DNA of 57,973 bases, taken from NCBI GenBank assembly GCA_032718475.1, contig JAUCBJ010007984.1:1-57973 (forward strand), in the 5' to 3' direction. Under the pieces are notes generated by a model. It had not been told where the DNA came from, did not search any database, and was given only the letters and a program-made list of their open reading frames with translations. Below are positions 1 through 38,515 of the stretch, piece by piece (the stretch's first letter is position 1; each line of letters begins with the position of its first letter). A program made the translations under genes and the position numbers. This DNA is from Nemertoderma westbladi (taxonomy: Eukaryota > Animalia > Xenacoelomorpha).

Positions 1-1
1 T

Positions 2-130
2 AATCGCCCAGTGGGTCGTTTATGTTTACTGGAAAGAGACAGAAAGCTCTCCGGAAACTATGGAAGGCAAGAAACTCTTCCCACGACCACTTCCCTAATC
101 CAACCCACATCTAGGGACTCCCCAACTTAA
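2..130 (+). CDS. 3' end of a putative BEL/Pao retrotransposon Pol (post-integrase DUF5641-like terminus), cut by the window edge
   Basis: Frame from nt 2 reads NRPVGRLCLLERDRKLSGNYGRQETLPTTTSLIQPTSRDSPT*. RPxxxLCLLE resembles the usual end of BEL/Pao Pol (RP(I/V)xKLxxL(E/P)). Only ~10 informative residues. Confidence 0.55.
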   Translation, partial: NRPVGRLCLLERDRKLSGNYGRQETLPTTTSLIQPTSRDSPT

Positions 131-651
131 TATCGTTCGGAGTGGGCGTGTGACTCTATTATTTTATATTATTTTATTATTTTTATATTTCTGTATGTAT
201 TACTATGTAATTTTATTATAATCGTTTTCTTTAATTTTATTCAGTAGAATGTTATTTTAGCGATTATTTAGTAGATTAGTGCAATATATATTCGCGTTTA
301 TTACTTAATTACTTATATTATATTTAGTGTGACGGTGAGAAACAAGTGTTTTTCTCTTTCCTTACTGTCCGTATTATATTATAAATACGTAACTACAGTA
401 AGATGAAATGTCCGTACTTATTAAAGTACAATAAAGCCACTACTATATTTAAGTATTATTGGTAGGCAGAGTATTAGGAATGCAAAGTTCAGATCCTCGT
501 GTCTCGGCTAAACCAAGCTCTGGGTAGACCTTGGAAACGAATTGCCTCTTCACACTGACATTGCTTCGTGCGATATTGCTCTCATACCGTATATTAAATA
601 ATACATATAGTAGCGTGATGTCCCTATAACAGTAGCGTATAACGCAAAATA

Positions 652-972
652 AATCTGTTAAACCCTTTGACCATCTGTAATTCTAGTCGATTAAGATATC
701 GCGGCACCCACCGATATACTTGAAAGACAAATTTTAGAATCAGTGGTTAACGTCCCCAGACAAGTTCTGGAATAAATCGGTGCCCATCTCAAATATTAAT
801 TATTTAATATTTGCTAATCCAATAAATCAAAATCTGTAAAATTCAGATCCTTCAACAATTCTAGTCAATTAAGATATCGTAGCATTTACCGATATTCTTA
901 AAAAGACAATTGTCATAGAATTAAGGATCTTGTGTCCCCAGACATATTCTAGAATCAAAATATGTCCATCTA
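652..972 (+). repeat. Diverged ~180-bp tandem duplication, each copy a long stem-loop
   Basis: AAATCTGT...AATTCTAGTC(G/A)ATTAAGATATCG...ACCGATAT...AAAGACAA...TAGAAT...GTCCCCAGACA...CCATCT occurs at ~652-790 and ~831-972. Confidence 0.8.
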
Positions 973-1784
973 ATTAGTAAATAATAAAATTTCAGGGAAT
1001 AATTTAAATTCATGCCTTTTAATGAATTTAATAAATTGCCATTTTTACGCAATTTATAACATTCCCAAAATTCCATTAATTAATAGATCACGGGAGCGGA
1101 GATTTATCTTCTTATGCGTATGAGTGTGCGAAAGTCTCCCAAACATAGTCAATAGCCGATAAAATTCATAAAGTCATGTATCAAACAGGACATTGACTAT
1201 TAAAGAATTACTATTAAATAACATCCCAGATCTGTATGTATTGGAATTACCCTAATTCTACCGCTAGCTTTGCATAATGTCACCATAGCAACAACCACGC
1301 TAGAATTAGAATTGAGTTAAAAGAACAATAGAAAGCTTGTCCCGTTGAATAGCATAGGGAATACATAGCGCACTACTAGTATCCAAGGATACATAATAAT
1401 ACAGTGACATTCTGGAAGGCATTGACTAACGGACAAATGGCCCGAATGTGCGTAGTTGTGACCAGTTGTGTGGTATTTGTGAGTTTATAGGTGAATGTTA
1501 CTGCTAAAGTGTGTTTACAGTAGCTAGTCGCAATCGTGAAAGTAACCTAACTCTCCAAGGAAAACCTGAAGTACATCTAAGCCTTTGGGACGGACAGTGG
1601 AGTGACTTGTGCCGGTTATCGTTGTCGTTGTACGGCTACGTCGTTGGCGAAAGTGCAGCGACAGCGGTATATCGGCGCTGAGGATCTCACACTGTCCGGG
1701 GGCACGGGAGAAGTAGGCAGCGACGCCCGCTCGCCTAATAAATATATAAACTCATTATAATATTGGTGAACTCGTATAGCAGAT

Positions 1785-3533
1785 ATGACTGAATTAATAG
1801 AAGATGATCTTGGTATCAGGGAGAGATATACTCTACCTTTACAAGCGTTTGTCGATAGCTTGATACGCGGCGACGCTGATCCAACTACTACGGAGGATGA
1901 TGGTCGTTATATCGAACCGCCAATGTCCCAGGAGCAACTTACGCGTGAATTGGACTATAGAAAATTCACTGCTCGCTATACGCATCGTAATGGTACGTAT
2001 ATGGACTTCTTGACTACTGGTCATCCTATTGATTTACACGACACCGACGATGTCGATACCGAAAGGGAAATGGTTTTATTTAAATATCATACCCAGCGGA
2101 GTCGAAACGACAAATCGAGAATAGAACACGAGAACTCTATTCGAAATAAACTCGAAAGAGAAGACGTTGAAGAACCTGATAAACGTAGCGGCTTCAACGA
2201 ATATCTAGAATTCCTAAGAGAGACCTATCTCAATGTTGCTAGTCAACAAAACCTCGAAACTCGATATCCTCAAGGTATACATCCAGATCCTATGATGGAA
2301 CTCAAACGGCTCTATTTTACGATGATGTATCTTACCGCCGATCGACCACTCCCTGTCGTTCCAGATAGCTTCAAACAGATGGAGGAATATTGTAAAACTG
2401 GAGAGCGATCACCCGCGTTTCCCCTTCAAGACGTGCGTCTTTGGTATTACTGTGACGAATGCCCTAGACCTAACCAGCAAATCGAAAGGCATAAACATCC
2501 GCGGAGACGTTGTGCTAAACACAGTTTTACGCGATATACTTATGGGAGTTTCGAGCGAAACCTTTTCGACGTATCACCTACGGTCGCGCGCCTTAAACGA
2601 TCATTGAACAAACCCATGATCAGAGTTCCGGAATACTCGGTCAGACCTCCTCATTCCCAAGTGATACCTCAAACTCTCGATCCTAATAGTATTACGGATC
2701 CTCCCGAGCTATACTCACTGTTCAAAGATCTAGTGTTACCTGAACAGTTGATTGGTGGCACTCCGGTAGTGGGTTCGTTAGATATTCGCCAACCTTACCT
2801 CGCTGGACTAGGACGCGGTCATCTAATATCACAGTTTAACCCCTACAACCGTCCTGGCCTCCCTCCGATTCAACCTGTTACAGAAGTCGAAGAGAGCGTG
2901 ATACGAAATGCGTTGGACGCTATTCGGCAGAAAATCGGAAAGGGAACTTACGATTGCTTGGAGAAACGTAAATTGCAACAACAAGTCCAAGCGGTGAAAG
3001 AACTAGCTTTACCCCAGTTCGATAGAGAAATACAAAATCTAGAGGAGGACATCGAACGTGGACGAACCTACTCCTTACAGGAATTCCTGGACGAGCGCTT
3101 GCAACAACAAGCTGAGGAAAATCAGCTCGAGGAGAGACATATAGAGCTGACTGAGAGGGAAGAAGCTGCTTTAGCCCAACCAGAAACTCAAATTCTCGTG
3201 ACGGATCTCTATTCCAAAACGATCCTCCACCCCTCGATGGTTCCTCATTTTAAAGACAAGCTCTTTGCTACGGTACAGCCTCAACCGGTTAATACTGATC
3301 TCAGATCTCACGAGCTCATTGCTGACGCTCCTATGATACAACGTCCACCCATCGCGGCTGCTCGTGTCGATGGTGTACTTGTTGAGCCTCCGGACAATAG
3401 AGCGGATCTAGTCCGTCGCATGGTACACGATGTTAACATACGCGCTAGACCTTTGCCGGACTCATTTTATGGAATTAAGGATCATCAATTTAAAGCAATA
3501 TTACATGGTAAAACCAGAAGATCCTACGCATAG
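1785..3533 (+). CDS. Uncharacterised 582-aa protein with a CxxC...HxH...C..H motif and a coiled-coil region (accessory ORF A)
   Basis: Uninterrupted 1.75-kb ORF in AT-rich DNA; CDECPRPNQQIERHKHPRRRCAKH from residue 223; Q/E/L-rich helical stretch at ~2900-3180. No family recognised. Confidence 0.8.
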   Translation: MTELIEDDLGIRERYTLPLQAFVDSLIRGDADPTTTEDDGRYIEPPMSQEQLTRELDYRKFTARYTHRNGTYMDFLTTGHPIDLHDTDDVDTEREMVLFKYHTQRSRNDKSRIEHENSIRNKLEREDVEEPDKRSGFNEYLEFLRETYLNVASQQNLETRYPQGIHPDPMMELKRLYFTMMYLTADRPLPVVPDSFKQMEEYCKTGERSPAFPLQDVRLWYYCDECPRPNQQIERHKHPRRRCAKHSFTRYTYGSFERNLFDVSPTVARLKRSLNKPMIRVPEYSVRPPHSQVIPQTLDPNSITDPPELYSLFKDLVLPEQLIGGTPVVGSLDIRQPYLAGLGRGHLISQFNPYNRPGLPPIQPVTEVEESVIRNALDAIRQKIGKGTYDCLEKRKLQQQVQAVKELALPQFDREIQNLEEDIERGRTYSLQEFLDERLQQQAEENQLEERHIELTEREEAALAQPETQILVTDLYSKTILHPSMVPHFKDKLFATVQPQPVNTDLRSHELIADAPMIQRPPIAAARVDGVLVEPPDNRADLVRRMVHDVNIRARPLPDSFYGIKDHQFKAILHGKTRRSYA

Positions 3534-6027
3534 TCTGAAGTTTCTACCATTGATCAATCCTCTCGACCTCGTCGAACTCGAACAACTACAAAAACATCTA
3601 GATCAGCTAGTTAAACTAAACTCATTTCGAAAACCGTATAATATTTCCAGAATAGAGAAAGAAATATTACCTCCGTACAATCTTGATGGATTCATTAAAA
3701 CTCGATTAGTGCACTGGAATCTTGACGTGTTATTCGAGGAAGAAAGAATAAAACGATATGGAGATGTGGAAACCTATACTACACAATGCTTAAAGTATAG
3801 AGATTTACCCAATGCTAGCGAATGCGCTACTTTGTGGCATCCAGTGGGAATGACTCTCGAAAACGCCACTAAAGAATGGAACGAGACTCTTAACGTTATC
3901 GAGATGTATGGCGTTGTTACTTATGACAACGAAGGTAGCGTTCCGGTGGGAGAACTAGGAACTACGCGAATGATACATATACGAGGACTCGCTGGTTCTA
4001 CCCACGTATTCACTCGAGCGTGTTCCGACGTGATTGATTATTCTTTTGAAACCCTTACGGAGACACAAAAGAAACTTCGACATGGACAATTCGAGCTCGC
4101 GCAGCGTTACGTCACCGACACCGAGCGCAAACCGGCCATGGGTATCGACGGATCAATGTTACCCCAACCCGTGCTCGAAATGTTGTTTAACGAAAGAATC
4201 CTAAAAATCGGCTCAGCTGTTTATGGAGATCTCCAAAACGATTTCCGGAATATGGAAAACATTCCATACCCTTTCGTTGATACTCAGCTGATTGCTCCTT
4301 GGGCCGAAGGCCGAGGTTTCTTTCGCACTATGTATGCCAATACACCCAGCGACATTACTAAGGTACAACGGACATCCATCGGACATCTTCCCTTTCAAGA
4401 ATATGGATGGAATTTCAAAGTTGGAAATCCTACCAATTACCAGCAAGTATATGGAGATCATTACTCTCGTTTATATTTTGATGGACCATTAACTGCGCCT
4501 GGTGCCGTATATAGCTTTATGAGTGTTCCACTTCGCCCTTCCTTAGCTATATACACGATCTTTGAAAACGCAGCACTTGCCGGTTGGCTAGCCGATGTGT
4601 GCAGTCGTACCATATGCGCTCACCCATTAATACTTGGAACTAAACTCGCCAAGTTAGACGAACACAATAAGTTTATACGTTTCGAATGTTTCCGGCGCTT
4701 TCTGACTCCGTTCCATAACGTCGACAGTCAGTTCAAGGACCGCGCGCTGACCAAACTCAGTCTGAGAGACTCAGCTGCGGAGAAGCTGAGTAGCGCTGGA
4801 TTTGCCGTTTTTCAAGACGTTTGTATACAGAACTTACATTCATCTGTCATACAAAGACCCCGAATACCTACAGGTTATTCTGTCGTGGAAATACAGACAG
4901 TGGATCCACTTACTGAGACCGACGCACCCACTTCGTCTATACAGCTGGAAGATGAACCAGTATGCTTGGAATCAGAAGCGATTCAGCCTACAGCTTCCCG
5001 GAGCAGTGACAATGATTATGTCATAGAGTGGTATCAAGGTCCACAGCGTCTCACAGCGTACGATTATCGACACGCCAACTACGTTTCTCGAAAACGTTGT
5101 CGATTATGCGCATCGAGAGACCACTTCACCCCTCTAGACTCGAGCGTACCTTGCTCCTATTTCCTCGAACAACCGATGATGGAAATATATTGTGCTTATT
5201 GCAGACTTAATAACTCTCATATTTTTGCCGTCTGCCCACAATTTATGACTCAATGTCACTACTGTCAACTTAAAGGACATGAAAGTTACAATTGTCCCTT
5301 TAATCGCGATTTAGAGAGCGTAGACGAGATGATCACCCTGCGATACATCCGAGCTTGGGAAGCGAACGCGGATTTACATTGCGAATCCCGACATCGCTAT
5401 TACCCTGGACGAGCTTACGAGGGAGTTTACGCGTTCCATCCTTATCTATTCGCGTCGATTGAACAGAAAACACGCGTACCAAGTTACGAGTTAATGAAGC
5501 GTGTTGGTGAGTGTATTTCCACCAAGTTTGTCAGAAAATACCTTAGAAACGTTAATCCTAATGATATAACCACATATCACCTGATCAATTTTATCCGTCA
5601 GGACCCTGAGTATGGCGACATCTTTGTGAACTCGCATCCTGAACTACAGGAAGTATCTCGGCGACCATATGAATATCGAACACGAGAACGTGAGCTGGAG
5701 AGAACCATTAAACCAAGAAAGTTCCTCACCACTCACGGTCCACCCACCGCTAGTGTCCAGACGACCCGTCAAGGACCCGTAGGAGCTGCCGTCCTGAGAC
5801 GCGCTCTAAAGGCCGTTAGACCTCGCTCCACTGAGGTTGATATTAATCAACCAGGTACTTCGACCAGCGGGTATACCGATCGTAACCCTACACCTTCTGA
5901 TGCAATTGAATTGCACCCTTCGCCTAGGAGCTACAGCCCTCCTCGTAAAGTGGCTCGCCCCAAAGAGAAAAGGACTCTTGCTAGCCTCACGAAACTGCGT
6001 AAACGCCGTCCGCGTAAGAAAGACTAA
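3430..6027 (+). CDS. 865-aa DEDDy (RNase D/WRN/EXD/mut-7-like) 3'-5' exonuclease domain + three CCHC zinc knuckles + basic C-terminus (accessory ORF B)
   Basis: ExoI VVTYDNEG (D166, E168); LPQPVLEMLFNERILKIGSAVYGDL (ExoII D267); FVDTQL; ExoIII-like PLRPSLAIYTIFE (Y375-x3-E379). Knuckles CRLCASRDH-x9-C, CAYCRLNNSHIFAVC, CHYCQLKGHESYNC. C-terminus KLRKRRPRKKD. True start could be 3430, 3469 or 3505. Confidence 0.8.
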   Translation: MLTYALDLCRTHFMELRIINLKQYYMVKPEDPTHSLKFLPLINPLDLVELEQLQKHLDQLVKLNSFRKPYNISRIEKEILPPYNLDGFIKTRLVHWNLDVLFEEERIKRYGDVETYTTQCLKYRDLPNASECATLWHPVGMTLENATKEWNETLNVIEMYGVVTYDNEGSVPVGELGTTRMIHIRGLAGSTHVFTRACSDVIDYSFETLTETQKKLRHGQFELAQRYVTDTERKPAMGIDGSMLPQPVLEMLFNERILKIGSAVYGDLQNDFRNMENIPYPFVDTQLIAPWAEGRGFFRTMYANTPSDITKVQRTSIGHLPFQEYGWNFKVGNPTNYQQVYGDHYSRLYFDGPLTAPGAVYSFMSVPLRPSLAIYTIFENAALAGWLADVCSRTICAHPLILGTKLAKLDEHNKFIRFECFRRFLTPFHNVDSQFKDRALTKLSLRDSAAEKLSSAGFAVFQDVCIQNLHSSVIQRPRIPTGYSVVEIQTVDPLTETDAPTSSIQLEDEPVCLESEAIQPTASRSSDNDYVIEWYQGPQRLTAYDYRHANYVSRKRCRLCASRDHFTPLDSSVPCSYFLEQPMMEIYCAYCRLNNSHIFAVCPQFMTQCHYCQLKGHESYNCPFNRDLESVDEMITLRYIRAWEANADLHCESRHRYYPGRAYEGVYAFHPYLFASIEQKTRVPSYELMKRVGECISTKFVRKYLRNVNPNDITTYHLINFIRQDPEYGDIFVNSHPELQEVSRRPYEYRTRERELERTIKPRKFLTTHGPPTASVQTTRQGPVGAAVLRRALKAVRPRSTEVDINQPGTSTSGYTDRNPTPSDAIELHPSPRSYSPPRKVARPKEKRTLASLTKLRKRRPRKKD

Positions 6028-6097
6028 CTGTTTAGAGTATCTTTAGGTTTTAGAAACTGTGATTTTTATATTTTATAGACTGAAAATCCCATTTTCT

Positions 6098-6108
6098 GGG
6101 AGCGGTGT
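6098..6108 (+). promoter_or_regulatory. Putative polypurine tract / 3' LTR boundary (GGGAGCGG|TGT)
   Basis: G-rich tract abutting TGT, 70 nt after the ORF B stop, as expected for an LTR retrotransposon PPT. Confidence 0.45.
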
Positions 6109-7412
6109 AAAAGCCTTTGCTGAATTGCCCCGTTATTTTTATTATTTTTACATTAAAATACTCTGTAGTTGATTTAATTAGTGTAAGAGACCGTATTATT
6201 ACTGTATCGGTGTTTTTTAGAGGATCTAAGAGCTATTTCCTCCGTATGTGTACTGTGGAAGGCATAGTTGATGATTCTATGGCAATTCGTGACGCAAAAG
6301 GTGATAGCTACTCTTGAACAGTAGTTACTATGACGACGGTTAACAGCTGATATTCATACGTGTTGATTTTCTTTGTTCTACGGCGTCTCTCAGTTCAGTC
6401 AGCCAATCAGAGCATTTTTATGGCTCTTGTACAGAGATTTCCTAGAAATCACTCAAGGCATTATTGTGCAGTGTTTACATTCTGTCCTGAGCCAGGAGAG
6501 AGCGGCTTGGAAATATTTTGTGCTTTTCTGTTTTAGCCTAACACTAGTAGGCTTAATTATAAGGACATATATCCGTTATCAAACCACACACACACACTGA
6601 ATCACTGTGCAACTCAACTAAACAAACCAAATCTGCATGTACCATACACTGGTGCATACTATATATTGTTATACTGCTATTTACTGTCGGTTCTTCATAA
6701 TATGGTTGATGAATTATTATATTTGGAATAACGATAAATAACCCCGAAAACCCAATATTCTTGATATACCGAAGGTAAGAGAGAAGGGTTACATATAACG
6801 ATTTTGACTTATGTTAAAGTGGTTTGAAGTGAATCTAATGTTATTTGATAGACCCTACATGATTCGGTCCGTGTTCCTTTTATATGTGACTAAAATCAGT
6901 GAAGATCGGCAGATTAGTGTGCAGTATTGTGCAGCATTGTGTATGAGTGATACTGATAACGAAGCATTTCCTAAAGAATGCGCCATATATGTGAATTATA
7001 ACTAAGCCATATCGTTGTGAGTAGTTTAAGTCATAACTCTGTTTATATAGATAGAGCGCCACGTCCTAAAGGAACTGTTAATATTTCCCGAAGGTGAATA
7101 ATATTGTCAGAGATTATATAATACTGTCAGTCGAATAATACATTAGGCTTACATAGCAATAAGATTAAGCCGTCGAACCCAATCTCCCGGGTATATCCAG
7201 TGGGTGAATGATCGCGCACCGATTGGTTTCGACTAGTGTAGTGAATCAAATACTTGTCATAGGCTAAAAGTGATTTATTATCTAGAAGACATCCTAATTT
7301 GGCGGGTTAAACTGCCAAAGGTCTGAAAGCGCGAACAACCGACAATGCACTCCAATACTAGAACCAGAAAATAAAGTGTAATAAAATGTACTTTGATCAG
7401 AGTTAATATATA

Positions 7413-9246
7413 GGCTCATTCCATGAAAAGGTCAACCTCCCCACTAATTTCTAAAAATGAGATGTAGCTTTGAATTTATACTTATTTTAGGTCAAAATTT
7501 ATCGTACTTCATGAATTCAGTGCTAAAAATTGTATCAACACAGGTGGTTTATCAAAAATAGTCGAATTACAAATTATGGACCTGCTCTGCACAAAATGTG
7601 AATAAAAGTGTGCAAAAGTTTGGTTTCCTGTAGGCACTTCCTATGACCAATAAATTAACATTTCTGAGCATGTACCAAATCAAAAATAAACCCATTTTCG
7701 AATTTTTTAGGTTTCATTTAATTTCACCAGTGTTTCATTCCTCTGTAATGAAATCAATAAAGTTAATCTTGTGATGTCCCATACTTTACCTAAAATAGTG
7801 AAATTTTTAGTTTATTCACAGAGATGTAACTCAGCCTAATCACCCAGTGGAATGCAAAGCACATTTGTGTTGCGTCATTGTATAAAACAATTAGTTTCAT
7901 CTTCACTCCCTCAGAAATATCATGGCGGCCAATTGAAAATTGTCCCATACTTTACCATTAAAATGGCGATTATATTAGTGCACTGTATTAATGTAATATG
8001 TGAAGCCATGAGTGATATAATACTCTAAGGTCATAGTCGGCCGTAAGAATAGGAGTCTATATTTGAACTGAGAATCATTCCTCAGTCAAGAAATCTTTGG
8101 TTTTATGCATGTAAAGTCCCATACTTTACCAAAAAATAGTGAAATTTTTAATTTATACACATAGAAGTAGTCTAACTCAGCCCAATCACCCAGTGGAATG
8201 CAAAGCACGTTTGTGTTGCGTCATCTAAAGAAACAATTACCTGTAGTTTCATAATCTACTCCCTCAGAAACATCATGACGGCCAATTGAAAATTGTCCCA
8301 TACTTTACCATTATAATGGCGATTACATTTTAGTGCACTGTATTAATGTAATATATGAAACCTGGAGGACAGGAGTGTTATAATGCTTTAGGGTGATAGT
8401 AGGGGGAAGCATAGAAGTATGTATTTGAACTAAGAATCATTCCTCAGTTAACTAATCTTTGAGTTTATGCATGTAAAGTCGCGTACTTTACAACAAATTT
8501 CAAAAAATTTAGTTTTTTAGCAGATAAGAAGATCGGTAAGTACAGTAATTGATACATTTTCAGAAAAATGGAAAGAATTTCGAAACTTTTTACAGACTAC
8601 ATGTGTACCAAGTTTGGTTATATTTCATCAATGATTGACGGACTTATTTAGGTTTTATCAAAATTTTGAAACTATCGGTACCAACAGACAGACTGTCTGA
8701 TATGTGACCTTTGATTCCTTAAACTTCAGATTCTATCCAAACTTTTGACAGACTTCATACGTACCAGGTTTGGTTTAATTTCATCTAAAAATGACCGAGT
8801 TATACAGTATTAGCGATCAAAAATTTGACAGATGACATACAACTCCTCAAGGGCACATATGCTAAGACTTCGGGTCAATTTGTGGGCCGCCCCACATTTT
8901 GTATCCATATCTTGGTTGGAAATACTTAGTTGCACTTTATTATCACTAATTATCCAGAAATTACTGTTAGGTTAAGTGTAAGAGACCATTTTGACCATAA
9001 AATTCGTACAGGTCCCGTACTTTACTTAGCAATGTCCCATACTTTACCACACAAACCACACTGTAAAAAATTAGCAATGCAGCAATTCGTCTTATATTTA
9101 TATTTTTATTTAAGCTTAATAATACAGCTTTATCCTAAACATCAACTCAACACCGTACCTGCGCACAATTCGCTAAATTTTAGAATTGAAATCATAAAAT
9201 AAAAAAAACCATTTCGTACGAATCCGTACTTTACCTTAATTGGACA

Positions 9247-9283
<37 letters not shown>

Positions 9284-9691
9284 CAAAAGCCTCCATATAT
9301 TATAATATTAACAAACAATAATTCGAATATAAAAACGCACCAAAACAAGTACAAATATAACCCACCACCAGCTGATTCAAACTGTTACCTAGCAACAATA
9401 CAAACAATACAAATTGGTTCAGTACCCATCACCAGTCTGCCACTCTGCCACTGCCAGTACCCAACAAACCCGCCAGACCTCTAACTTCTAAGCCGTCCCG
9501 GCCAATTGGACAAGCTGGTGTTTTCTCAAAAGTGACTAAGTCCCGCCATAATCTTAGCGAAATCAAAGCTGATATTCGAAAGTTCAATCCAAGCACAATT
9601 TTGTGTACATATGTGCTGTGGATAACATTGTACAGGCAATCAAAGTTCAAAATTGTGTACGAATGTCCCGTACTTTACTTTGGAATGAGCC
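7413..9691. mobile_element. Non-autonomous TIR DNA transposon (GG...CC termini, TATA flanks; Kolobok-like)
   Basis: TATA|GGCTCATTCCA at 7409-7423 and TGGAATGAGCC|TATA at 9681-9695. Motif GTCCC(A/G)TACTTTAC repeated about nine times. Internal ~340-bp tandem duplication (~7775-8490). No transposase ORF. Confidence 0.7.
9251..9503 (-). mobile_element. 5'-truncated poly(A)-tailed retroposon with a perfect 13-bp TSD
   Basis: T-run 9250-9280; AATTGGACAAGCT at 9238-9250 and 9504-9516. Confidence 0.85.
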
Positions 9692-11199
9692 TATAATTGA
9701 TTTATTTTATAAGTGATTATTGAATTATTTATATTATTATTATATATTAGACTGCACTAAGAAATTTTTTGTAAAGCCAACATTTTGGCACATCGTGAAT
9801 ACTGATGGATGATGCTTTGAATTCTATTGGAATTTGTACGGAAGTTGTGGTTTTCTAGAATTTGCTGTTTAATTGAATCTGAATGTGTGCATGGGCTTAC
9901 GTAGATCATATACCATTACAGTGCCCGTCTCTGATTGGTCTCCAGAACATCGTCTCCTTATGCGATATTATAAAAAATAGTTCTTTACAGTTCTGTGCAG
10001 ATATTATCAGGATTTTTGGAAGACGTTTGGTCAATATGGATACACAAGCATCGTATTCCTAGAGATATAATTATTATAATCGCATTGATCTGCAGAGATG
10101 AATGACCAAATGGGCATTGACATACAGTAAAACCATATAGAAAACCAACAAATGCGCCGTAATATTAAACTACCACAGATACCTCCAGGTGTGTCAGTAA
10201 TATCAAACAAGGGAAATAATTTGAATGGGAAATCGATTCTCCACAGCTCTACCACGGAAGCCAGGAAACACAGCAACCATGCGGAGAGGCGCACCTTATT
10301 AGTATTAGTTACGCAGCAAACTTAGTAAACAAACTTATCAAACAAGTGCACAAACCCCGTCCGTCCCCATATCGTAACACAACACAACCGCAACCCCACC
10401 ATCACTCAATCGCAATTCCCCGCATAACGAAGACACGGTGAGCGAGGTGGTACGGCGGTAACCTATGGCGACCAAGGTTGTTACACACAGGGGAGGAAAT
10501 ATCGCAATTCCAAAACACATTGTGTTACACATGCACCAATAATGGCACCCGCAATACAAAAAGTAACATACAAAAACGCATGCAACATATGCAAATAAAG
10601 TTGCTGGTACCTGGGTGAAATGCCGAAAACTATCGCAACACGCACCACGGCACATAGGAACGCCGTTCGGAACCAGAACAGCAAAATCTTACCATACAGA
10701 CAGTAGTGGACACCGAAAGCCCAACATCATTATATGTGGCTGGCCACGAGAAAAGGGACCTTATGTCACCGGAGGTCGATTTTGAGTTACTAGGCCTATG
10801 AGATGCAGAATTTTCCAGAGATTTTAACAAAAAAAACGGGGTCTCAATATCTATTTCCAAAAAAAAGTTATAGCGATTTATGTGAAGGTGAATCCGGTAG
10901 CTCTTTTCAAAATAATTTTGTTATTTAAAAAAAATGGAAAATATTAATAATATCATAGCAATTCTTACTACTGTATATAGTTAGGCAGCTCAATGTTATT
11001 CGGCTATTTATACAACTTTTAACACTTTGAAACTATTAATATTGTTAATGAACTATTAAAAAAAAATTTTTGCAAAGTTTAAAAAAAAGCATGTAGGCTA
11101 ACCAAAATTTTTTTTTTAATTTAAATTTTTTTCAAAACAATAAATTTTTTTTTCAAAAAAAATTTTTTTTTACAAAATTTAAAATTATTCGTATATTGA

Positions 11200-11610
11200 A
11201 TTCATTATTGGGAGTGTTGTAGATGTCCACCTTGTCCCACCCATATTGTAGAAAGTCTCTATAAAATTTCAAGACAAACGGACAGGAATTAACAAAATGA
11301 CAGGCAATTTACATTCTAGAACATTATCGCCCCCTAGCGGCAGACATTTGAATATTACAGTCTAGGATTCATTCCCAAGTATAATTTCATATTGTAGAAG
11401 GTGTCTACAAAATTTCAAAAGAAACGGACAGGAATTAACAAAATGACAAGCAATTTACATTCTAGAACATTATCGCCCCCTAGCGGTAGACTTTTGAATA
11501 TTACAGTCTGGTATTCATTCTTCAGTGTCACTTAATATCGCATCGCAGTAGGTGCTTACAAATATTCAGAACTAACGAACAGAAATTAACAAAATGACAG
11601 CCAAAGAAAT
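11200..11610. repeat. ~146-bp tandem repeat (about 2.5 units) containing TCGCCCCCTAGCGG
   Basis: AAACGGACAGGAATTAACAAAATGACA...TATCGCCCCCTAGCGG units; motif starts at 11327 and 11473. Confidence 0.75.
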
Positions 11611-12300
11611 TTCACCTAAAATATTTTATTTTAGTTTTTCGCCGAGAAAAAAGTAAAATCAATGCCACTGTGTCACTTTTTTCCCAAAGGAAGAAAGTAA
11701 TACTTTTCATCCGATTTAGTCTTCAGTACATTAAATTTTATTTTTATTGTTTTGAAATTAATACTTAAATTATAAAATATCAGAATATTTGAGCAAATAA
11801 ATAAGCAAACCTGAACATTTTTAAGTATATGAAATGGGTTTAGCCATACTGTAAAATGTGGTTTTTATTGTTGTGACAAGCTGGAACCGGGGGAGCCTAC
11901 ATAGCGCGCACTACTGTAAGCTCTACATATCTATTCTGCTCTATATTCCAACCAAAAATTGGAAAGGGAGCCAATATAACAATATTGGACACAGAAATAC
12001 CGAGCCATTAAGTGGTCCCGACAAGCCCACTTACAGCCACAGGGAAAGGTGGATGATGCAATAGGGCCAGCTGGTGGGTGAGTTGGACCAATGGGAGGGC
12101 GGCATGTGACGTGTATCAGTCAGAGGCCACTGAATCATGTTAGCCTTCTAAAGGCAATGTATTCTACCCATATATAGTACCGGTCATTCATTGTGCAACC
12201 ATTTAGCATTCATTCCATTTATAATGCAAAGGTGAAATAATTTTTCCACCGCTACGTTGCGCTACGCTACAGTGTGCTACCGGTATTACAGTATTCAAAA

Positions 12301-19245: not shown

Positions 19246-20239
19246 AACTAATCAAATATAGATTGCAAAATTTAATGATGCTGATGTGATATGTCACTTG
19301 CTATAGACAAAAATTAATTAATAATATAAAAACAATGAAGAAAAATTAATAAATAAAAAACATACTGTTTGTTGGTGGCACATCTGTATCAATCCATAGA
19401 AATGTTTATCATGTATTCTCGCTTTATATCACCCAGCTAAGCCAAAATACCCAATACATGATTTATTTGCGGAAGTGATACTGATGATGATTTATTTACT
19501 AGCTCAAATGCAAATCATTTTACCAGCCCATCAGTATCACTTCCAATTTCGGTTGTCCGCTGTCGGTTTCTGCTGTCGGTTTTTAATTTTATTAAATTAA
19601 TTTTTTCTTTTATAAAATTTTTTAATATACATTTTTTAAATTTGTTTATTTAATTTTATTTTTTTTAATTAAAATTTGTATTTTTGTGTGATACTCATGG
19701 GCGCCTTACGACGTTGTACGGCTGTCGTACGGCCGATAGTATAAATGGGCCTCAAGGCTGAGATTACTCCCGTAATTGAGTTATATTTCATATCCGTACC
19801 TGTGGTATTTTCGTATATTGCAAAAATAAGACAGTAACTTATGTTATTGAGTTATCGTTTATTGTTGTGGTTAGAAAAGCCCGCCAATGTAACCTGCTCC
19901 TTTCCACTAATTATGATTTCTAGGGAGAAAACTGGGGAGTGTTCTCAGCCTAGGCTGAGACGACTGGGGAGTCATTTTTGGTGGAGAGTTATCTCAGCCT
20001 GTTACACCGAGTTGATGTGCGGTTTCATTAGAGTCATTAAACTGCCACTAGGGATCCCCGCTGTCGGTTTATTCGCTGTATCGGTAGTATCCGGGGTGGT
20101 CTGTAGAGTAAGACACTAAAAAAGTTTCATTAGAAATGAGAATATCACAGTCTCTGTAAAACTCTATAAGTTAGAATCTAATTGACGTACTTTATACCCT
20201 CTACGTTTCATAAAGACAAAGTAAGGGTGTAAATGTTAC

Positions 20240-21503
20240 TCCGACAGTAGACCACCGACAGCAGACAACCGACAGCAGAAACCGACAGCGGACAACTGAC
20301 AGCAGACAACCAACATCACACAACTGACATCAGACAACCGACAGCAGACAACCGACAGCAGGCAACCGAAAGCACACAACAAACAGCAGACAACCGACAG
20401 GATACAACCAACAGCAGACAACCGACAGCATTGAACTGACAGCAGACAACCGAAAACAAACAATCAATGGCGGACAACCGAGTTTGTTTAGTTTGAGATA
20501 AATCAAATAGGCCAATTTATATAATTTAATGTTTAGAAAATGAAAAATAACAATTCATGATAGTACGGAGCCCCTCAGTGGACTCAGTGGCCGACGAAAA
20601 ACCAATATCAGACAACCGAGAGCAGACAACCGACAGCAGGCTACCAAAAGCATACAACCAACTGCAGACAAGCGTCATCAGACAACCGAGAGCAGACAAC
20701 CAACAGCAGGCAACTGACAGTAGACAACTAACAGTAAATAACCGACAGTAGACAACTGACAGTAGGCAACCATAAACAGAAACTCGAGAACAGACAATCG
20801 ACAGCAGGCAACCGAGAGCAGACAACCGACAGCACACAGACGGCAGCATACAACAGACAGCAGACAACCGACAGCAGATACCCGTCAGCAGACTAACAAT
20901 GAAAGATAACAGACAACCGACAGCATACAGTATACAACCGACAGCAGTCAAGTGACAGTACCAAACCGACAGCAGACAACCGATAATAGACTACCAGTAG
21001 CAGATACCGACACCAGACAACCGACAGCAGACAACTAACAGTAGACAACCACCAACATATAACCTACAGCAGACAACCGACAGCAGACATCCGACAGCAT
21101 ACAACCGACAGCAGACAACCGACAGCAGATACCCGTCAGCAGACTAACAATGAAAGATAACAGACAACCGACAGCATACAGCATACAACCGACAGCAGTC
21201 AAGTGACAGTACCAAACCGACAGCAGACAACCGATAATAGACTACCAGTAGCAGATACCGACACCAGACAACCGACAGCAGACAACTAACAGTAGACAAC
21301 CACCAACATATAACCTACAGCAGGCAACCGACAGCAGACATCCGACAGCATACAACCGACAGCAGACAACCGACAACAAACAAGCAATGGCGGACAACCG
21401 AGTTTGTTTAGTTTGAGTTTAATCAAATAGGCCAATTTATATAATTTAATGTTTAGAAAATGAAAAATAACAACTCATAATAGTACGGAGCCCCTCAGTG
21501 GAC
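20240..21503 (-). repeat. Degenerate 14-bp satellite (CAGACAACCGACAG)n with internal segmental duplications
   Basis: Reverse-orientation relative of the 22958 array; ~248-bp block duplicated (~20869-21365); ~125-bp unique block at ~20465-20584 repeated at ~21385-21504. Confidence 0.9.
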
Positions 21504-22957
21504 TTTTAATCCCCGTTTTATAACTTAGTATCCATGTACGCTATCATCAATTAATTAATATTGAGATAACGAACATGTATGTATAGTAAGAAAAAAAAAA
21601 CGAGGATTTCGTGTTTTAAGTTTAAGTTTAATTAGGTGATCTGATATTCCCATTGCACATATTATACAATAAATGATAATTATTTAGGTTATACGTCATA
21701 TAATAATGATACATACTATACGCTAGGTTGTGACAATACAATGAGCAATAGCGAGGCTAGTATAGCTCAATGTATTGTCTGGGAGTGTCGAGCGGGTGGA
21801 GGTAGTATGTCGGGGGTTGTGCAAATGTTACTATACAAGCTAAGCAAGAGACTGTTGGTTGCTAATGGTTGGTAAGGCAAAACTCTTCTACACTTTATGT
21901 TGCTGTTGTTTCACCGTAGTTCCGATGAGCTGTTCCAGGTAGATTAGATTAAACTGGCGGGTCGATATTAGAGAAATTAAAAAAGTACAATAAATTTTCG
22001 ATGTAGGCCTAAAGATTATGAAATGGTCCTCTCACTGACTCCTTATGATAGCGAACACTTACAACTAATAAACAGTTTTCCGTTTTGGGTTAATTTCAGC
22101 TACCAACACTACAATGAATTAAGTGAAATACATCTAATTAGTTGTTACTTATTTAATTATTATAAAGTAATAATTATATAATAATTAGTATTACTTATTA
22201 ATTTATGAGAACCAGAAAAAGTCTGCCGAAGCTCATATTCAATAAATATATTTATAATATATCTATATTATTGTATTTAATATAATCTTTTAAATAACAA
22301 CGGACAAGACAATTAGTGGCTATCTATAGTACAGCAGTGATATTACTGTAGTAGCCTTTATTAAACACATGTTCTCATGAAAAGGTTAAGTTACTTAAAA
22401 GCACTAGCTGGTGCCTAATGGAAGAGAAAGGCAAGCACAGATAAATCAATTGGAGTTATTTGTTTGTAACATGCTCCTGTTGCTATGGTTATTAAAACAC
22501 CACAATCCATCAATGACTAAGTTTCCAATTGAGTCAGACACCTGGGACTACTGATTGAATGTATTGCATTAAACAAATAATGCATATTTAGATTGCCTGT
22601 TGTTCTATCTGCAGTCGGGCCCTTGTGAAGTATACCAGAAATTCTACTGTAATATTTCACTTTTGCAGTTTACCAAAAATGTGAATAATACCAGACTTTC
22701 TCCCGTTATATTTCACTTTGCAGTTACCCCCATGTGAAGAATACCAGATTTTCACTAAAAACCCAGGTTACAGAATGGCTCAATCTAACCAAAACAATAA
22801 ACGAATTAATATCTGTACAGGTTATAAGATATCAATAAACGCTAAAATAGACTTAATACGTAGAAATTAAAAAATACAAATTCTTCCAATCAGTATAAAA
22901 TTCCAATAGAATTTCGACCAAAAAGTGAAAACTTGATATTCTTCACATGATGGGCGT

Positions 22958-23978
22958 GTCGGTTGTCAGCTGTCGGTTGTCAGCTGTCGGTTGTCAGCTG
23001 TCGGTTGTCAGCTGTCGGTTGTCAGCTGTCGGTTGTCAGCTGTCGGTTGTCAGCTGTCGGTTGTCAGCTGTCGGTTGTCAGCTGTCGGTTGTCAGCTGTC
23101 GGTTGTCAGCTGTCGGTTGTCGGCTGTCGGTTGTCAGCTGTCGGTTGTCAGCTGTCGGTTGTCAGCTGTCGGTTGTCAGCTGTCGGTTGTCAGCTGTCGG
23201 TTGTCAGCTGTCGCTTGTCAGCTGTCGGTTGTCAGCTGTCGGTTGTCAGCTGTCGGTTGTCAGCTGTCGGTTGTCAGCTGTCGGTTGTCAGCTGTCGGTT
23301 GTCAGCTGTCGGTTGTCAGCTGTCGGTTGTCAGCTGTCGGTTGTCGGCTGTCGGTTGTCAGTTGTCGGTTGTCAGCTGTCGGTTGTCAGCTGTCGGTTGT
23401 CAGCTGTCGGTTGTCAGCTGTCGGTTGTCAGCTGTCGGTTGTCAGCTGTCGGTTGTCAGCTGTCGGTTGTCAGCTGTCGGTTGTCGGCTGTCGGTTGTCA
23501 GTTGTCAGCTGTCGGTTGTCAGCTGTCGGTTGTCAGCTGTCGGTTGTCAGCTGTCGGTTGTCAGCTATCGGTTGTCAGCTGTCGGTTGTCAGCTGTCGGT
23601 TGTCAGCTGTCGGTTGTCAGCTGTCGGTTGTCAGCTGTCGGTTGTCAGCTGTCGGTTGTCAGCTGTCGGTTGTCAGCTGTCGGTTGTCAGCTGTCGGTTG
23701 TCAGCTGTCGGTTGTCAGCTGTCGGTTGTCAGCTGTCGGTTGTCGGCTGTCGGTTGTCAGCTGTCGGTTGTCAGCTGTCGGTTGTCAGTTGTCGGTTGTC
23801 AGCTGTCGGTTGTCAGCTGTCGGTTGTCAGCTGTCGGTTGTCAGTTGTCGGTTGTCAGCTGTCGGTTGTCAGCTGTCGGTTGTCAGCTGTCGGTTGTCAG
23901 TTGTCGGTTGTCAGCTGTCGGTTGTCAGCTGTCGGTTGTCAGCTGTCGGTTGTCAGCTGTCGGTTGTCAGCTGTCGGT
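22958..23978 (+). repeat. Homogeneous 14-bp satellite (GTCGGTTGTCAGCT)n, about 73 units
   Basis: Directly visible; few point variants and one 7-bp phase slip near 23500. Confidence 0.98.
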
Positions 23979-24034
23979 CGCCTGCCATCTTATCTCGGAT
24001 CTCGGATTTCCTGCAGATATCCATGGATTCCTAT

Positions 24035-26915
24035 TAGAGTTTCTGAGAATATTAAAATATTCGAATGATTTTTTTAAAGCATTCTAATATTCGAGCACTT
24101 TTATAAACAACTAAACAACTAGTTTTCACCGATGGATTAAATAATTATTGTCTGATTTTTCGATCTCCATCAATGTCCATTATTTTTTTAATTTCTACTT
24201 TGAATATAAAAGTATAATACAACTTGTCGATAATATCATTAATATAATGCAGACAAAAAGAGTGATACTAAATGTGGCAGTACATGGAAAAAAGTGACGT
24301 ATTCAGCGTTTTGTGAAAGGTAGAAAACATATTTAGATCAGCAATGTAACTATATTCGACTGTCTCTTTGTCCGTCTTTCGTACTTTAGGTTGTAGAATA
24401 TAACAAAGGCACACTAATTTGCTAAAGGTTTCACAAGATTCACTAGTTTTCCAGGTCAGTTTTCATGCTTATGCTTGACATAATATAGTCTGTCTGTCAG
24501 TCTATTTATCTGTCTGTCAATCTGTTGTTTGTCAAAATATAAGAAGACCCTCTGCTTGGCCAGTATTTTAGCTACGGTGTATTTCTGGTCTGTTATTTTA
24601 TTTTTGATGTTTGGCTGAATCTAGTCTGCCTGTTGTTTACTTTTGACAGACAGAGAGTCAGGCAGACAGACAGACTGATAGAAACACTACTAGATTCCAC
24701 CAAACACTAAAACTGACATGAGAAATGAAAACACCGAATAGGAAAACACCAAGATCTGAAATATTAGCTCTGTGGTGTGTTTCATTATTGTGAGGTTACG
24801 TCATTAACAAACATTATTTAAGACAGTATTGAGATGGAAGGTTCAAACTACGATATTTAGTCCGACACGATATCGTGTAGTTTTTGCTATTTTCCGAAGG
24901 CAAATACATATCTAGAGTTTATACTAAATATACCATTAGAAAGCCCAAATAATTTACTACAAAATGAGATGTAATCCAAAAAAATTGATGTTTGTGTCAT
25001 GTGTCCATTCTTACCTGGCAAACTGTGAATGAGGTATCTGGTCGGAAAAGTTGTGCAAAGGGGCGCCTCAAAGCCAATAGTCCCGAAGAACGTGTGGGGA
25101 AGTGGAAAAATCACTTCAGCAACTTGCTTGGGCAGCCACCAAACATCGAGGTCAGCCCTACAAGGAAAATATATGACAAGACACTACCTATAGAAACAGG
25201 GGACTTCACACCTGCCGAACTCCAAAGAAGCATTAAAAGCATGTCCAATAATAAAGCGAGTGGATTAGATGAAATCCCAGCGGAGGTATGGAAAACAGGA
25301 GTGCTAAACAGACTATTATTGAATGTTTGCAACCGGATGTTAAAAGGGGAAAAGCCTCCACCAATTTGGACTAAAGGTCAACTAAAGCCTCTCCCCAAGA
25401 AAGGAGACCTCGGTATACCAACAAACTATCGTGGGATCTGTCTGCTTGTGGTAGCTGCCAAAATATACAATAAAATGATTCTATATAGGATTAGGCCTCA
25501 CATAGAGAAACTACTGCGTAAGAGCCAAAACGGATTTCGACCAAGTAGATCAACAATAGCTCAGATACTTGCACTACGGAGACTGAGTCAACTATTAAGT
25601 CAAAGAGTCTCACCGCAGTCATGACTTTTGTGGACTTTAAGAAGGCATTCGACTCCATCCATAGAGGTAAAATGCTTGAAATCCTAAGAGCTTATGGAAT
25701 ACCAGAGGTAATCGTTGCTGGCATTGGATTGTTATATTGTGACACAGAAGCACAGGTACTCTCAACAGATGGTGAAACTGAGTTTTTCTCAATCCTGGCT
25801 GGCGTACTGCAAGGTGACACATTAGCACCATTACTATTTGTAATTGTACTGGATTACGCAATGAGGACGGCCACAAAGGGTGAAGATCTGGGATTCACAC
25901 ATCAAGAACGCAGAAGTAGTAGATATCCGTCAACTACAGTCACAGACACCGACTTCGCGGATGACATCGCCCTGCTCTCTAATACGCTAGCAGATGCACA
26001 GCTTCTACTAAATAAAGTGGAGAGGGCTGGTAAGGAGGTTGGATTGCATATAAATGCTTCCAAGACCGAATTCATGACCTTTAATGTTGATGGAAACTTG
26101 ACAACCATTGATAATAATCAACTAAGGAAGGTTGACGACTTCCAGTACTTAGGATCATGGATAGAGAGTAGCAAAAAGGACATAGAATTTAGGAAAGCAA
26201 AGGCTTGGGTAGCTCTATCAAAAATGGATACCATCTGGAAATCAGATCTCTCCAGGCACCTGAAGACTGAGTTCTTTCGAGCCACAGTGGAAAGTGTATT
26301 TTTATACGGGGGTGAGACCTGGACACAGACTAAATCACTTGAACAACGAATTGATGGTTGCTACACAAGACTACTAAGGGCAGCCCTAAACATCAGCTGG
26401 AGACAACACATGACAAACGCTGAGCTTTATGGTACAATACCACCTGTATCAACCACCCTCCGTGAACGCAGATTAAGATTCAGTGGGCACTGCTGGCGAA
26501 GTAAAGACGAGGTCATACCAGATCTACTTCTCTGGCAACCAACTCATGGAAAGCGTAGTGGTGGACGACCGGCCATAACATATATAGATCAACTTGAAAT
26601 ATATACTGAACTTGGGAGAAACGAAATTGCGACAACTATGGAGAATCGGGAAGCCTGGAAGGATCTCATTCCCACTGTCCGAGTTCGCTCGACTTAGTAG
26701 TAGTAGTGGTAGTAGTCAATTCTGTAACCGCCACAAATGCAGTTGAAAAAATCACTAAAATGACAAATAGATAATTAACTTGTGAGATTTACTTAATAAG
26801 TTAGCTTATACTTTTATTGTTCTTGTATAATATTGTAATAGTAATTATAATTTTAATACACTTAAAAGTATCAACGAATATTCGAATAGTAAAATAGCCA
26901 TTCTCAGAAACTCTA
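24035..26915. mobile_element. hAT-like non-autonomous element interrupted by an RTE LINE
   Basis: TIR TAGAGTTTCTGAGAAT (24035) / ATTCTCAGAAACTCTA (ends 26915); 8-bp flanks ATTCCTAT and ATTCTTAC (6/8 match); subterminal TATTCGAAT motifs. Confidence 0.7.
25013..26716 (+). mobile_element. RTE-clade LINE family 1, 5'-truncated; reverse transcriptase broken by a frameshift near 25590-25620
   Basis: KGDLGIPTNYRGICLL, QNGFRPSRST, FVDFKKAFDSI, GVLQGDTLAPLLF, DFADDI, FQYLGS, RERRLRFSGHCWR; the stop codon runs into a (TAG)n tail. Confidence 0.95.
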
Positions 26916-28520
26916 ATTCTTACGACGTAGTCCAAACTAACAATTTTTCTATAACTGTAAAAAGTTTATATTAAGTTGAGAAAATATTATAAATTATTGT
27001 ACATAATAAAGTGTTTCATGGTGACCTGGATTCAGCCTTCCCGATATTCGGAATATTTCCTAATGTTTTGGAAATATTTTTCGGAGAAATTATGTGGGGT
27101 CATTTATTTTTCTTTGGGGACCTATCTTTTTTTTTTCACGTGGCCCCATTTTTTTCAGTGGGGGTCCCGCAGACACCAACACCGGAGCTGATTACAGGTA
27201 CATAATTTGGTCATATTTGTGGAGGGGTATAAAACAAGTCGCGGTAAAAAGTTACATCGCTTGAGGCCAGCCTGGAAGCACAATCGCAACTGGAGATTCT
27301 GCTACCTTCAACTGACTCGAGATAGGCCTGCTGTATCTGTATCACTTCCCAGAAATCAGTTTATCCTTCCTTATCTTATAACTTACCCCACAACTGAAAT
27401 ATTCTTGTTTCGCCATAGTATAAAGGACGCCTTACATACTATTATGGAAATGGTCGATGTGCAACACATGACAAACGCCGAGCTTTATGGTACAATACCA
27501 CCTGTATCAACCACCCCCCGTGAACGCAGATTAAGATTCAGTGGGCACTACTGCTGGCGAAGTAAAGACGAGGTCATACCAGATCTACTTCTCTGGCAAC
27601 CAACTCATGGAAAGCGTAGTCGTGGACGACCGGCCATAACATATATAGATCAACTTGAAAGGGATACTGAACTTGGGAGAAACGAAATTGCAACAACTAT
27701 GGAGAATCGGGAAGCCTGGAAGGATCTCATTTCCACTGTCCTAGTTCGCTCGACTTAGTAGTAGTAGTAGTAGTCTATACTGTAACCGCCACAAATACAG
27801 TTGAAAAAAAATCACTAAAATGACAAATAGATAATTAACTTGTGAGATTTACTTAATTAAGTAGCTTATACTTTTATTGTTCTTGTATAATATTGTAATA
27901 GTAATTATAATTTTAATACACTTAAAAGTATCAACGAATATTCGAATAGTAAAATAGCCATTCTCAGAAACTCTAATTCTTAAGACGCAGTCCAAACTAA
28001 CAATTTTTCTATAACTGTAAAAAGTTTATATTAAGTTGAGAAAATAATATAAATTATTGTACATAATAAAGTGTTTCATGGTGACCTGGATTCAGCCTTC
28101 CCGATATTCGGAATATTTCCTAAAGTTTTGGAAATATATTTCGGAGAAAATATGTGGGGTCATTTATTTTTCTTTGGGGACCTATCTTTTTTTTTTCACG
28201 TGACCCCATTTTTTTCAGTGGGGTCCCGCAGACACCAACACCTGAGCGGATTACAGGTACATAATTTGCTCATATTTGTGGAGGGGTATAGAACAAGTTG
28301 CGGGAAAAAAGTTACATCGCTTGAGGCCAGCCTGGAAGCACAATCGCAACTGGAGATTCTGCTACCTTCAACTAACTCGAGATAGGCCTGCTGTATCTGT
28401 ATCACTTCCCAGAAATCAGTTTATCCTTCCTTATCTTATAACTTACCCCACAACTGAAATATTCTTGTTTCGCCATAGTATAAAGGACGCCTTACATACT
28501 ATTATGGAAATGGTCGATGT
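26404..28520 (+). repeat. ~1057-bp tandem duplication of the LINE 3' end, hAT right TIR and flank
   Basis: 26404-27460 repeated at 27462-28520 (CAACACATGACAAACGC...ATGGTCGATGT) with scattered substitutions. Confidence 0.95.
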
Positions 28521-37640: not shown

Positions 37641-37769
37641 TCCCCCCCACCCCCCCCCCCCCCCCATATTACAACGTATTACAAAGACTTGTTTTCCAGA
37701 CTCCGAGTTCGTACCCGACTCCGAGTTCGTACTGGTTCGAACGGGTCGCCGACTAAATAGATTCGAGTT

Positions 37770-38515
37770 CCTACTGCTACTACGTTCGGCATGCTACATT
37801 GCAGCTGCAGTATATATATTACATATATATTAAGAATGCTGTGCCGGCTTGTCGCCAAAATTGCGCCTCCACAACTCCCAATCAACCCCATGACATTTGC
37901 TAGATCATCCGCATCTTCAAGGCCAGTGTCCTTTAGGATGCGTCTCAAGAAAGTAATGGACTGTCCACCATGCTTATTCGCTCCATGAGGGTGCCAAAGC
38001 ACAAGGTTATGCACTGGCTGCTGGTCCTCACGGCGAAAGCAATGTCCTGCAAAGCGGAGGCGGTTCCGTTCAAGTGTCAGGCTAGGGGAGATTAATGGAA
38101 AACCTCCAATGTTGTATAGAGTCTGATTGGAGATGTGTTCATTGTACTTGACACAATGAACCCGCCGCAGCATTCTTGTGAAAGTCACATCCAGAGATTT
38201 GGTATCCTCTAAAGTTAGAGCCCAGCATGGACTCCCATATAAGAGTACTGGTACTACTGCTGCCTTAAATAATCGAACCTTAAGGTTCCGTTTTATTCAA
38301 TGAGACTTCCATATCCTGGACAGACTATTTAACCCTGCCCATGCCTTCCCCTTACGTATCCGAAGGCCTTCACCTGACTTTCTGGTCCATGATCCCAAGT
38401 AGCAGAAGTCTTCTACGTGCCAAGCAAGCCGTCTTTAGAGCTTATGCCCTTACGATCAGACTTTTCTTGAGGGATGTCTAGATTGACTATCATGATTTTG
38501 GTATTCTTGAAATTT
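37770..38515 (-). mobile_element. RTE family 2, 5'-truncated copy
   Basis: TFTRMLRRVHCVKYNEHISNQTL...RLRFAGHCFRREDQ; same 3' UTR and tail as the 31322 copy. Confidence 0.92.

Follow-up and report, generated by a model that had tools for sequence, protein, structure and literature searches.

Our analysis of a contig of Nemertoderma westbladi (JAUCBJ010007984.1, positions 1 to 57,973; this whole stretch of 57,973 nucleotides is referred to as the window) indicates that bases 1-7337 are very probably the 3′ half of one multi-copy long terminal repeat (LTR) retrotransposon, which probably belongs to the BEL/Pao group. Between a pol-like end and a likely 3′ LTR the element carries two overlapping open reading frames (ORFs), of which ORF1 encodes a real, conserved protein without detected relative and ORF2 a putative exonuclease with zinc knuckles. 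The coordinates of all features are collected in the table.

A high-copy repeat with a likely 3′ LTR

The evidence for a repeat comes from contigs, which are labelled by sequencing run (X1, X3-X7). Seven of the eight listed runs, from four studies, contain all or part of the stretch, and the best-matching run may be the sample of the window itself. In the four runs compared over 1-7600 we found 52,511 (X1), 13,030, 565 and 241 matching contigs, most of them 90-99% alike. Three of the runs covered every one of the 30 bins, the fourth 28 of them. The X1 contigs ranged widely in identity (12,695 at 99% or more, 19,914 at 95-99%, 16,030 at 90-95% and 3,872 below 90%). With tens of thousands of contigs over 1-7337 an origin of the ORFs as single-copy host genes was ruled out; the original prediction had named this origin as a test, and the ORFs were found to lie in a multi-copy repeat.

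The right end of the repeat is the ACA at 7337, because contigs in two studies end or diverge there and the depth collapses. In the bin past 7366 summed depth was 7,750, down from 1.03 million; X1 and X3 both dropped more than 100-fold there, and one X4 contig (7092-7337, depth 340) stops exactly at 7337. When 5950-7450 was compared with X4-X6, loose ends behind 7337/7338 were seen in one X5 contig and in two mutually unlike X4 contigs, while no X7 contig matched this region. The contig ends thus move the end of the element from 6860, as first proposed, to 7337. The repeat that this right end sits in or next to is itself tandemly duplicated (7735-8135 and 8075-8497, 81% alike).

Other copies also tie the parts of the unit together. 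Contigs extend upstream past base 2 (46 in X1, five in X5), and joints in other copies connect 40 with 1281, 99 with 235, 250 with 468 and 777 with 1252. Divergent contigs cover 452-789, 760-1079, 1212-1541 and 1505-1919, so that any breakpoint placed between 149 and 1919 is crossed or skipped over in another copy. Further joints (2159 to 4999, and 3135/3142 to 5881-5888) tie ORF1 to ORF2, and contigs at 5427-5964 and 6085-6494 continue toward and into the LTR. No listed contig spans the full unit and some of the joints are single contigs. Since other copies link pol end, spacer and ORFs, the ORFs are not host genes and are unlikely to be chance neighbours, and the concern that they might lie outside the unit was not borne out: the copies link pol end, spacer and ORFs with the polypurine tract (PPT) and the TG...CA end.

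The assignment to BEL/Pao starts from the pol-like terminus, which ends at 130 as originally predicted. Its ten-residue motif RPVGRLCLLE appears to resemble the C-terminus of BEL/Pao integrases, where DUF5641 forms the C-terminal domain. The last 42 and 20 residues gave no Pfam match; only about ten residues of DUF5641 would fall in the window. The end structure points the same way. In BEL/Pao elements the 3′ LTR is preceded by a PPT of about 10 nt, and here a tract of 8 nt was found directly before TGT, at the place given in the original prediction, with a similar tract at 139-148. The candidate LTR of 1,232 nt, one copy of which lies in the window, is near the 0.2-1.2 kb range of Belpaoviridae. 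With this family the element shares an animal host, a PPT before a candidate TG...CA LTR, extra gene space 3′ of pol and probably the pol-end motif. The window itself reads as animal-like DNA: both an HPS3 gene and pieces of RTE-like LINEs occur in it.

Two groups of observations weigh against this picture of the element. Of the 18 rows listed out of 84, none was a loose end before 6106, and two contigs cross 6106 unbroken, so that the start of the LTR is a putative one. Moreover gag, reverse transcriptase (RT), RNase H, a 5′ LTR, a primer-binding site (PBS) and a target-site duplication were not seen in the window, outside of which they would sit; neither of the two loose-end rows behind 7337/7338 (18 of 84 rows listed) resembled a PBS. 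As the label depends on a ten-residue motif and the end structure, we keep BEL/Pao as the probable assignment and stop short of classifying the element there. The 5′ half of the LTR (6154-6660) was shallower and more variable than the 3′ half in X1, X3 and X5, which fits subfamilies differing in U3.

A different division of the unit would have a BEL-like element end in an LTR that starts at 149, with the ORFs and 6106-7337 as a separate unit that either lies there by chance or was captured as a cassette 3′ of the old LTR and moves along with it. A purine tract and TGT 8-20 nt past the pol stop, as at ordinary element ends, would suit this division, as would the seven AATAAA and three TATA-like sites found in the spacer by motif scan. 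Spacer contigs are also as deep as LTR contigs (52.7 vs 15-40 in X5; 1,049 vs 320-1,213 in X4), when an internal region should be shallower, but depth is not a measure of copy number. Homology between the spacer (149-1784) and the LTR (6106-7337) was not detected in two plus nine alignments against shuffles or with nhmmer, and the hairpin of 49 pairs in the spacer is biased to the sense strand. A joint from 6154 to 213 was rejected as a sign of such homology, because it is located on a shared AT-rich 21-mer. A one-off neighbour is excluded, because other copies connect the two sides of every possible breakpoint from 149 to 1919. The captured cassette, with an older 3′ LTR kept inside the element, is the version that might apply; we give the division as a whole only a slim chance. 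The first tract may have been left over from an older 3′ end.

Features of the element at the left end of the window (nucleotide positions in the window)
Feature	Position	Strand	Remarks
Pol-like frame, last 42 codons	2..130	+	RPVGRLCLLE at 5-34; reads NRPVGRLCLLE; open to window edge; stop TAA 128-130
Spacer	131-1784	+	1,654 nt between pol stop and ORF1
First purine-rich tract and TGT	139..151	+	GGAGTGGGCG followed by TGT; rival LTR start
Duplicated unit of about 135 nt	679..992	+	Copies 679-812 and 857-992, 73% alike, E 6e-12; small stem-loop in each
RNA hairpin, sense strand	1581..1703	+	49 pairs, 10 of them G-U; ends 81 nt 5′ of ORF1 ATG
Overlapping AATAAA and TATA-like motifs (putative)	1737..1750	+	Motif scan; 35-48 nt 5′ of ORF1 ATG
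ORF1, 582 aa	1785..3533	+	Orphan; Cys/His cluster at residues 223-246; Gln/Glu-rich stretch at about 395-465
ORF2, 865 aa from first ATG	3430..6027	+	Start uncertain; alignment with P0004 begins near residue 120
Branch-point-like CTAAAC and acceptor-like TTTCCAG	3616..3650	+	Seen in the sequence; possible splice entry of ORF2
DEDDy-type 3′-5′ exonuclease domain (predicted)	3925..4566	+	D166, E168, D267, Y375, E379
Zinc-knuckle region	5098..5295	+	CX2CX8HX2C, CX2CX3HX4C, and a looser first Cys pair with His and Cys
Basic tail	5935..6024	+	14 Lys/Arg in last 30 residues; likely nuclear-localisation or RNA-binding
PPT-like tract	6098..6105	+	GGGAGCGG, 8 nt, 7 purines; TGT starts at 6106
Likely 3′ LTR, TGT...ACA	6106..7337	+	1,232 nt; right end from contigs, putative left end from PPT and TGT

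ORF1, ORF2 and the upstream hairpin

ORF1 and ORF2 are the only ATG frames of more than 105 aa within 1-12000. They share 104 nt, ORF2 being read in the +1 frame, and follow a spacer whose predicted length of 1.65 kb agrees with our measurement. The description as two intact, intronless ORFs holds for their lengths of 582 and 865 aa; they need not be intronless, given a branch-point- and acceptor-like site inside ORF2. Neither is an env gene. The best 19-residue Kyte-Doolittle means in the two ORFs were 1.07 and 1.19, and env identity was ruled out for both by the lack of any hydrophobic 19-mer above 1.2, in agreement with the original prediction.

ORF1 is under purifying selection. Variants between copies were taken from 40 listed rows, chosen by depth, with 1,157 further; 18 of the 22 listed in ORF1 were synonymous (p 5e-6; 0.337 would be expected if every change were a transition), as were 14 of 16 among sites segregating between copies. 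The selection that had been suggested from the long open frames is supported for ORF1; ORF2 shows no such excess (three of nine synonymous, with three further rows in its tail outside this count). None of the 12 listed indels (95 further) fell in coding sequence, which makes up 60% of the unit (p 2e-5), a count that is biased because rows were chosen by depth, which is lower inside the ORFs and so favours the flanks. No homolog of ORF1 was found in Pfam, NCBIfam, word-seeded protein searches, Atlas, PHROGs or the PDB (the full HMMER search covered ORF2 only), and its best Atlas match of 0.77 was below the usable level. Its earlier description as a Zn/coiled-coil protein was not supported, as it has a single Cys/His cluster (223-246), no Pfam family and, in its Gln/Glu-rich stretch, a heptad score of 1.25 that lies within those of 100 shuffles (mean 1.16, maximum 1.48). 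ORF1 thus adds a protein without detected relative that is clearly kept by selection.

The hairpin upstream of ORF1 had been overlooked in the original prediction. For this region, which was selected post hoc, we obtained a folding energy of -70.9 kcal/mol on the sense strand (z -7.5, none of 300 shuffles as stable) and z -1.9 on the minus strand, and a repeat estimate gave z -7.6 for the sense and -2.4 for the other strand. The strand bias suggests a signal at the RNA level. A fixed-window fold scan of 109 windows gave -3.7 for the window overlapping the hairpin and -5.0 and -4.3 for two windows in the duplicated unit at 679-992. That unit folds with z -2.1 to -3.0 on both strands and without strand preference, and in the consensus of its stem-loops two of 25 pairs change on both sides. 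Rfam gave no match in 1-7600, hairpin included.

The reading of the ORF2 protein (P0002) as a DEDDy exonuclease with zinc knuckles is supported by RNase D matches, by its CCHC motifs and by the layout of one relative. NCBIfam RNase D matched residues 246-291 with E 0.00096-0.011, at 15-18.5 bits against a cut-off of 299. The only plasmid match was an annotated rnd gene (27% identity over 106 aa; 16.6 bits compared with a maximum of 6.5 in 500 shuffles). In Atlas the PF01612 3′-5′ exonuclease clusters scored 0.91-0.92, less than an unnamed cluster (0.93); the number of shared features was 162-165, below the 170 typical of true members; one cluster at 0.92 is mostly from Rotifera, which we regard as a lead only. 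A Pfam match to zf-CCHC_3 had E 0.0049, below the cut-off. Among 1.84 billion representatives a single relative passed, P0004 from one ENA contig (E 2.8e-7, 30% identity, 648 aa). It has weak PF01612 and zf-CCHC matches and three knuckles that match retroviral nucleocapsids at E 1e-4. P0004 and ORF2 share the order of exonuclease, linker and CCHC knuckles, the same insert before ExoIII and a Y-x3-E; P0004 differs in a shorter N-terminus and in lacking the 30-residue insert after ExoI. Word-seeded protein searches and a phage tblastn found nothing for ORF2, PDB sequence searches gave only non-significant matches for either ORF, no record was found for their exact sequences, and scans for related loci were blank.

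In both alignment modes the ExoII Asp (D267 in ORF2, D130 in P0004, D88 in RNase D) and the ExoIII Tyr (Y375, Y229 and Y154, respectively) each fall in one column. By these residues ORF2 is best described as DEDDy-like with a D-E-D-E set (it reads D-E-D-Y-E), and not as RNase D proper. A form of ORF2 without the fourth acidic residue was ruled out by the P0004 alignment, with Glu at Tyr+4. With the RNase D/WRN/EXD/Rrp6 class (TIGR01388, PF01612) ORF2 has in common the ExoII Asp and ExoIII Tyr in register and the 27% identity over 106 aa; it departs from that class in its fourth catalytic residue (Glu), in two insertions and in carrying CCHC knuckles and a basic tail, no HRDC was found, and it scores far below the family cut-offs.

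We consider the predicted nuclease moderately likely to be active. Several results weigh on the other side. PF01612 gave no Pfam match on ORF2; the residue at Tyr+4 is Glu and not Asp in both ORF2 (E379) and P0004 (E233); D166 and E168 pair with D62 and E64 of P0004 in only three of five alignments, and the ExoI of RNase D aligned with ORF2 in neither mode. AlphaFold models of ORF2 reached pLDDT 31 and 30 with one and two input sequences, and ORF2 has no synonymous excess (three of nine listed variants, six of the nine being private to this copy).

Derivatives of the element were found as well. Three listed joint forms in X1 and X3 share an identical net skip of 2,717 nt that deletes nuclease and knuckles, and they are one derivative lineage in several variants. 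As such derivatives occur, ORF2 is dispensable in cis. In addition, an X4 contig of high depth (2,918) passes from ORF1 codon 125 straight to ORF2 codon 524 (2159 to 4999), in frame if nothing lies between, and may represent an abundant relative in which the ORF1 N-terminus is fused to the knuckles without the nuclease.

Known systems and potential functions

DEDDy ORF3s have been described from the rotifer LTR elements Juno and Vesta and from Athena/Terminon retroelements (Rodriguez, Kenefick and Arkhipova 2017, PMC5408684), so that the original prediction was right to point to bdelloid rotifer LTR elements and Terminons as precedents. Like ORF2, the ORF3 of Juno and Vesta is an RNase D-like DEDDy ORF that lies 3′ of pol, replaces env and has no transmembrane segment; its catalytic residues are apparently retained, and a Cys-His-Cys motif is noted in some. 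Compared by description only, the rotifer elements differ in belonging to retrovirus-like lineages with dUTPase and GPY/F features, with LTRs of 159-551 bp, one ORF3 each (a DEDDy/GDSL fusion being possible) and the motif DEED. The element described here is instead likely BEL/Pao, with an LTR of 1,232 nt, D-E-D-E, C-terminal CCHC knuckles, an orphan ORF and a spacer of 1.65 kb with a hairpin.

Belpaoviridae encode one to three genes in 4.2-10 kb with env as an option (PMC8742986), and env-bearing BEL/Pao elements include Roo, Tas, Cer7 and mosquito elements (PMC8742986, PMC3118150, PMC13524379 and PMC554778). The third gene of these is a membrane glycoprotein, which is not the case here. A BEL/Pao element with an exonuclease ORF was not among the literature matches listed, in a search that partly missed the slash spelling and had Repbase and subscription journals outside its scope. 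If the BEL/Pao assignment holds, this would be a third, unrelated retroelement group with a DEDDy-type nuclease, which would speak for a general advantage and not for a rotifer oddity. A high-copy family with natural nuclease-deleted derivatives also makes the question of 2017, on nuclease activity and substrate, testable.

As for its function, we tentatively propose that ORF2 might be an RNase that acts in trans against silencing and protects the element RNA from small-RNA silencing by the host. ORF1 and ORF2 would be expressed from a subgenomic RNA, either from an internal start near 1743 or by splicing, and the hairpin would act in cis as a signal in export, packaging or translation. The knuckles of ORF2 would bind single-stranded RNA, the basic tail would bring the protein to the nucleus, and the nuclease would trim or destroy silencing RNAs or their precursors in trans. 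We prefer such a role over a step in reverse transcription because this type of enzyme is common to LTR elements and to the Penelope-like Terminons, which copy differently; by this comparison, the common ground of the two would be only that their RNA is exposed to host silencing. The 2017 study argues the other way: it favours 3′-end processing of element RNA, is sceptical of a role in silencing by which the element would be limited, and reports no activity assay (PMC5408684).

That ORF2 works as an Rrp6/Air2-like module of its own element and processes the nucleic acid of that element (the 3′ end of genomic or subgenomic RNA, the tRNA primer or cDNA ends) ranks close behind our proposal, though on balance it seems rather unlikely to us. 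RNase D is the best named match, the knuckles resemble nucleocapsid or Air2-type fingers, and the rotifer study gives preference to this role for the ORF3s (PMC5408684). A motif scan of the LTR found no AATAAA, but this absence means little because only about 1.0 would be expected by chance. No HRDC domain was found in ORF2 (Pfam, NCBIfam), and the ORF2-less derivatives, which occur in several variants, would require supply in trans. Quite improbable is a weak or inactive nuclease fold that serves as an RNA-binding decoy or scaffold, like the host proteins EXD1 or Maelstrom: the replacement of the fourth Asp by Glu, about 30 extra residues between ExoI and ExoII and the unstable ExoI alignment would fit it, but four acidic positions and the Tyr are kept in ORF2 and P0004 at 30% identity. 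Nidovirus ExoN, which proofreads RNA synthesis, offers an analogy for a nuclease that proofreads reverse transcription and so permits a long genome, estimated here at about 14 kb. The visible 7.3 kb together with about 5.5 kb of gag-pol (the internal length of Sinbad) and a 5′ LTR of 1.2 kb would indeed exceed the family range of 4.2-10 kb. However, far longer LTR elements such as Burro are listed without such a domain, and the closest named match is an RNase and not a polymerase proofreader, which makes proofreading very unlikely.

In its fullest form, which is speculative and on balance unlikely, our proposal of a counter-silencing RNase would describe a BEL/Pao lineage of about 14 kb with a counter-defence module of two proteins, the strongly selected orphan and an active zinc-knuckle D-E-D-E RNase that destroys piRNAs or siRNAs of the host. 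The module would be controlled by the hairpin and parasitised by the nuclease-deleted derivatives, and P0004 would represent it in a distant animal. If true, this would be an animal retrotransposon with an anti-silencing nuclease of its own.

Other features of the window

The HPS3 (Hermansky-Pudlak syndrome 3) gene lies at 54577-57093 on the plus strand as a single frame of 838 aa with no apparent intron and with both domains (Pfam E 1.6e-31 and 1.7e-25). RTE-like LINE pieces with RVT_1 matches were found at 24989-26697, 27192-27758 and 31563-33170 on the plus strand and at 37679-38296 on the minus strand. The first of these is frameshifted and followed by a duplication of 1,060 nt of its 3′ end; the third is an open RT frame of 535 aa, so the other transposon-derived frames in the window, which had been described as truncated or disrupted, are not all short. 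Two arrays of 14-nt units (20225-21504 and 22817-24000), about 2 kb apart and in opposite orientation, are a source of spurious long frames. A 68-nt tandem repeat occupies 52857-53629, with related single units near 19847, 40362 and 57918.

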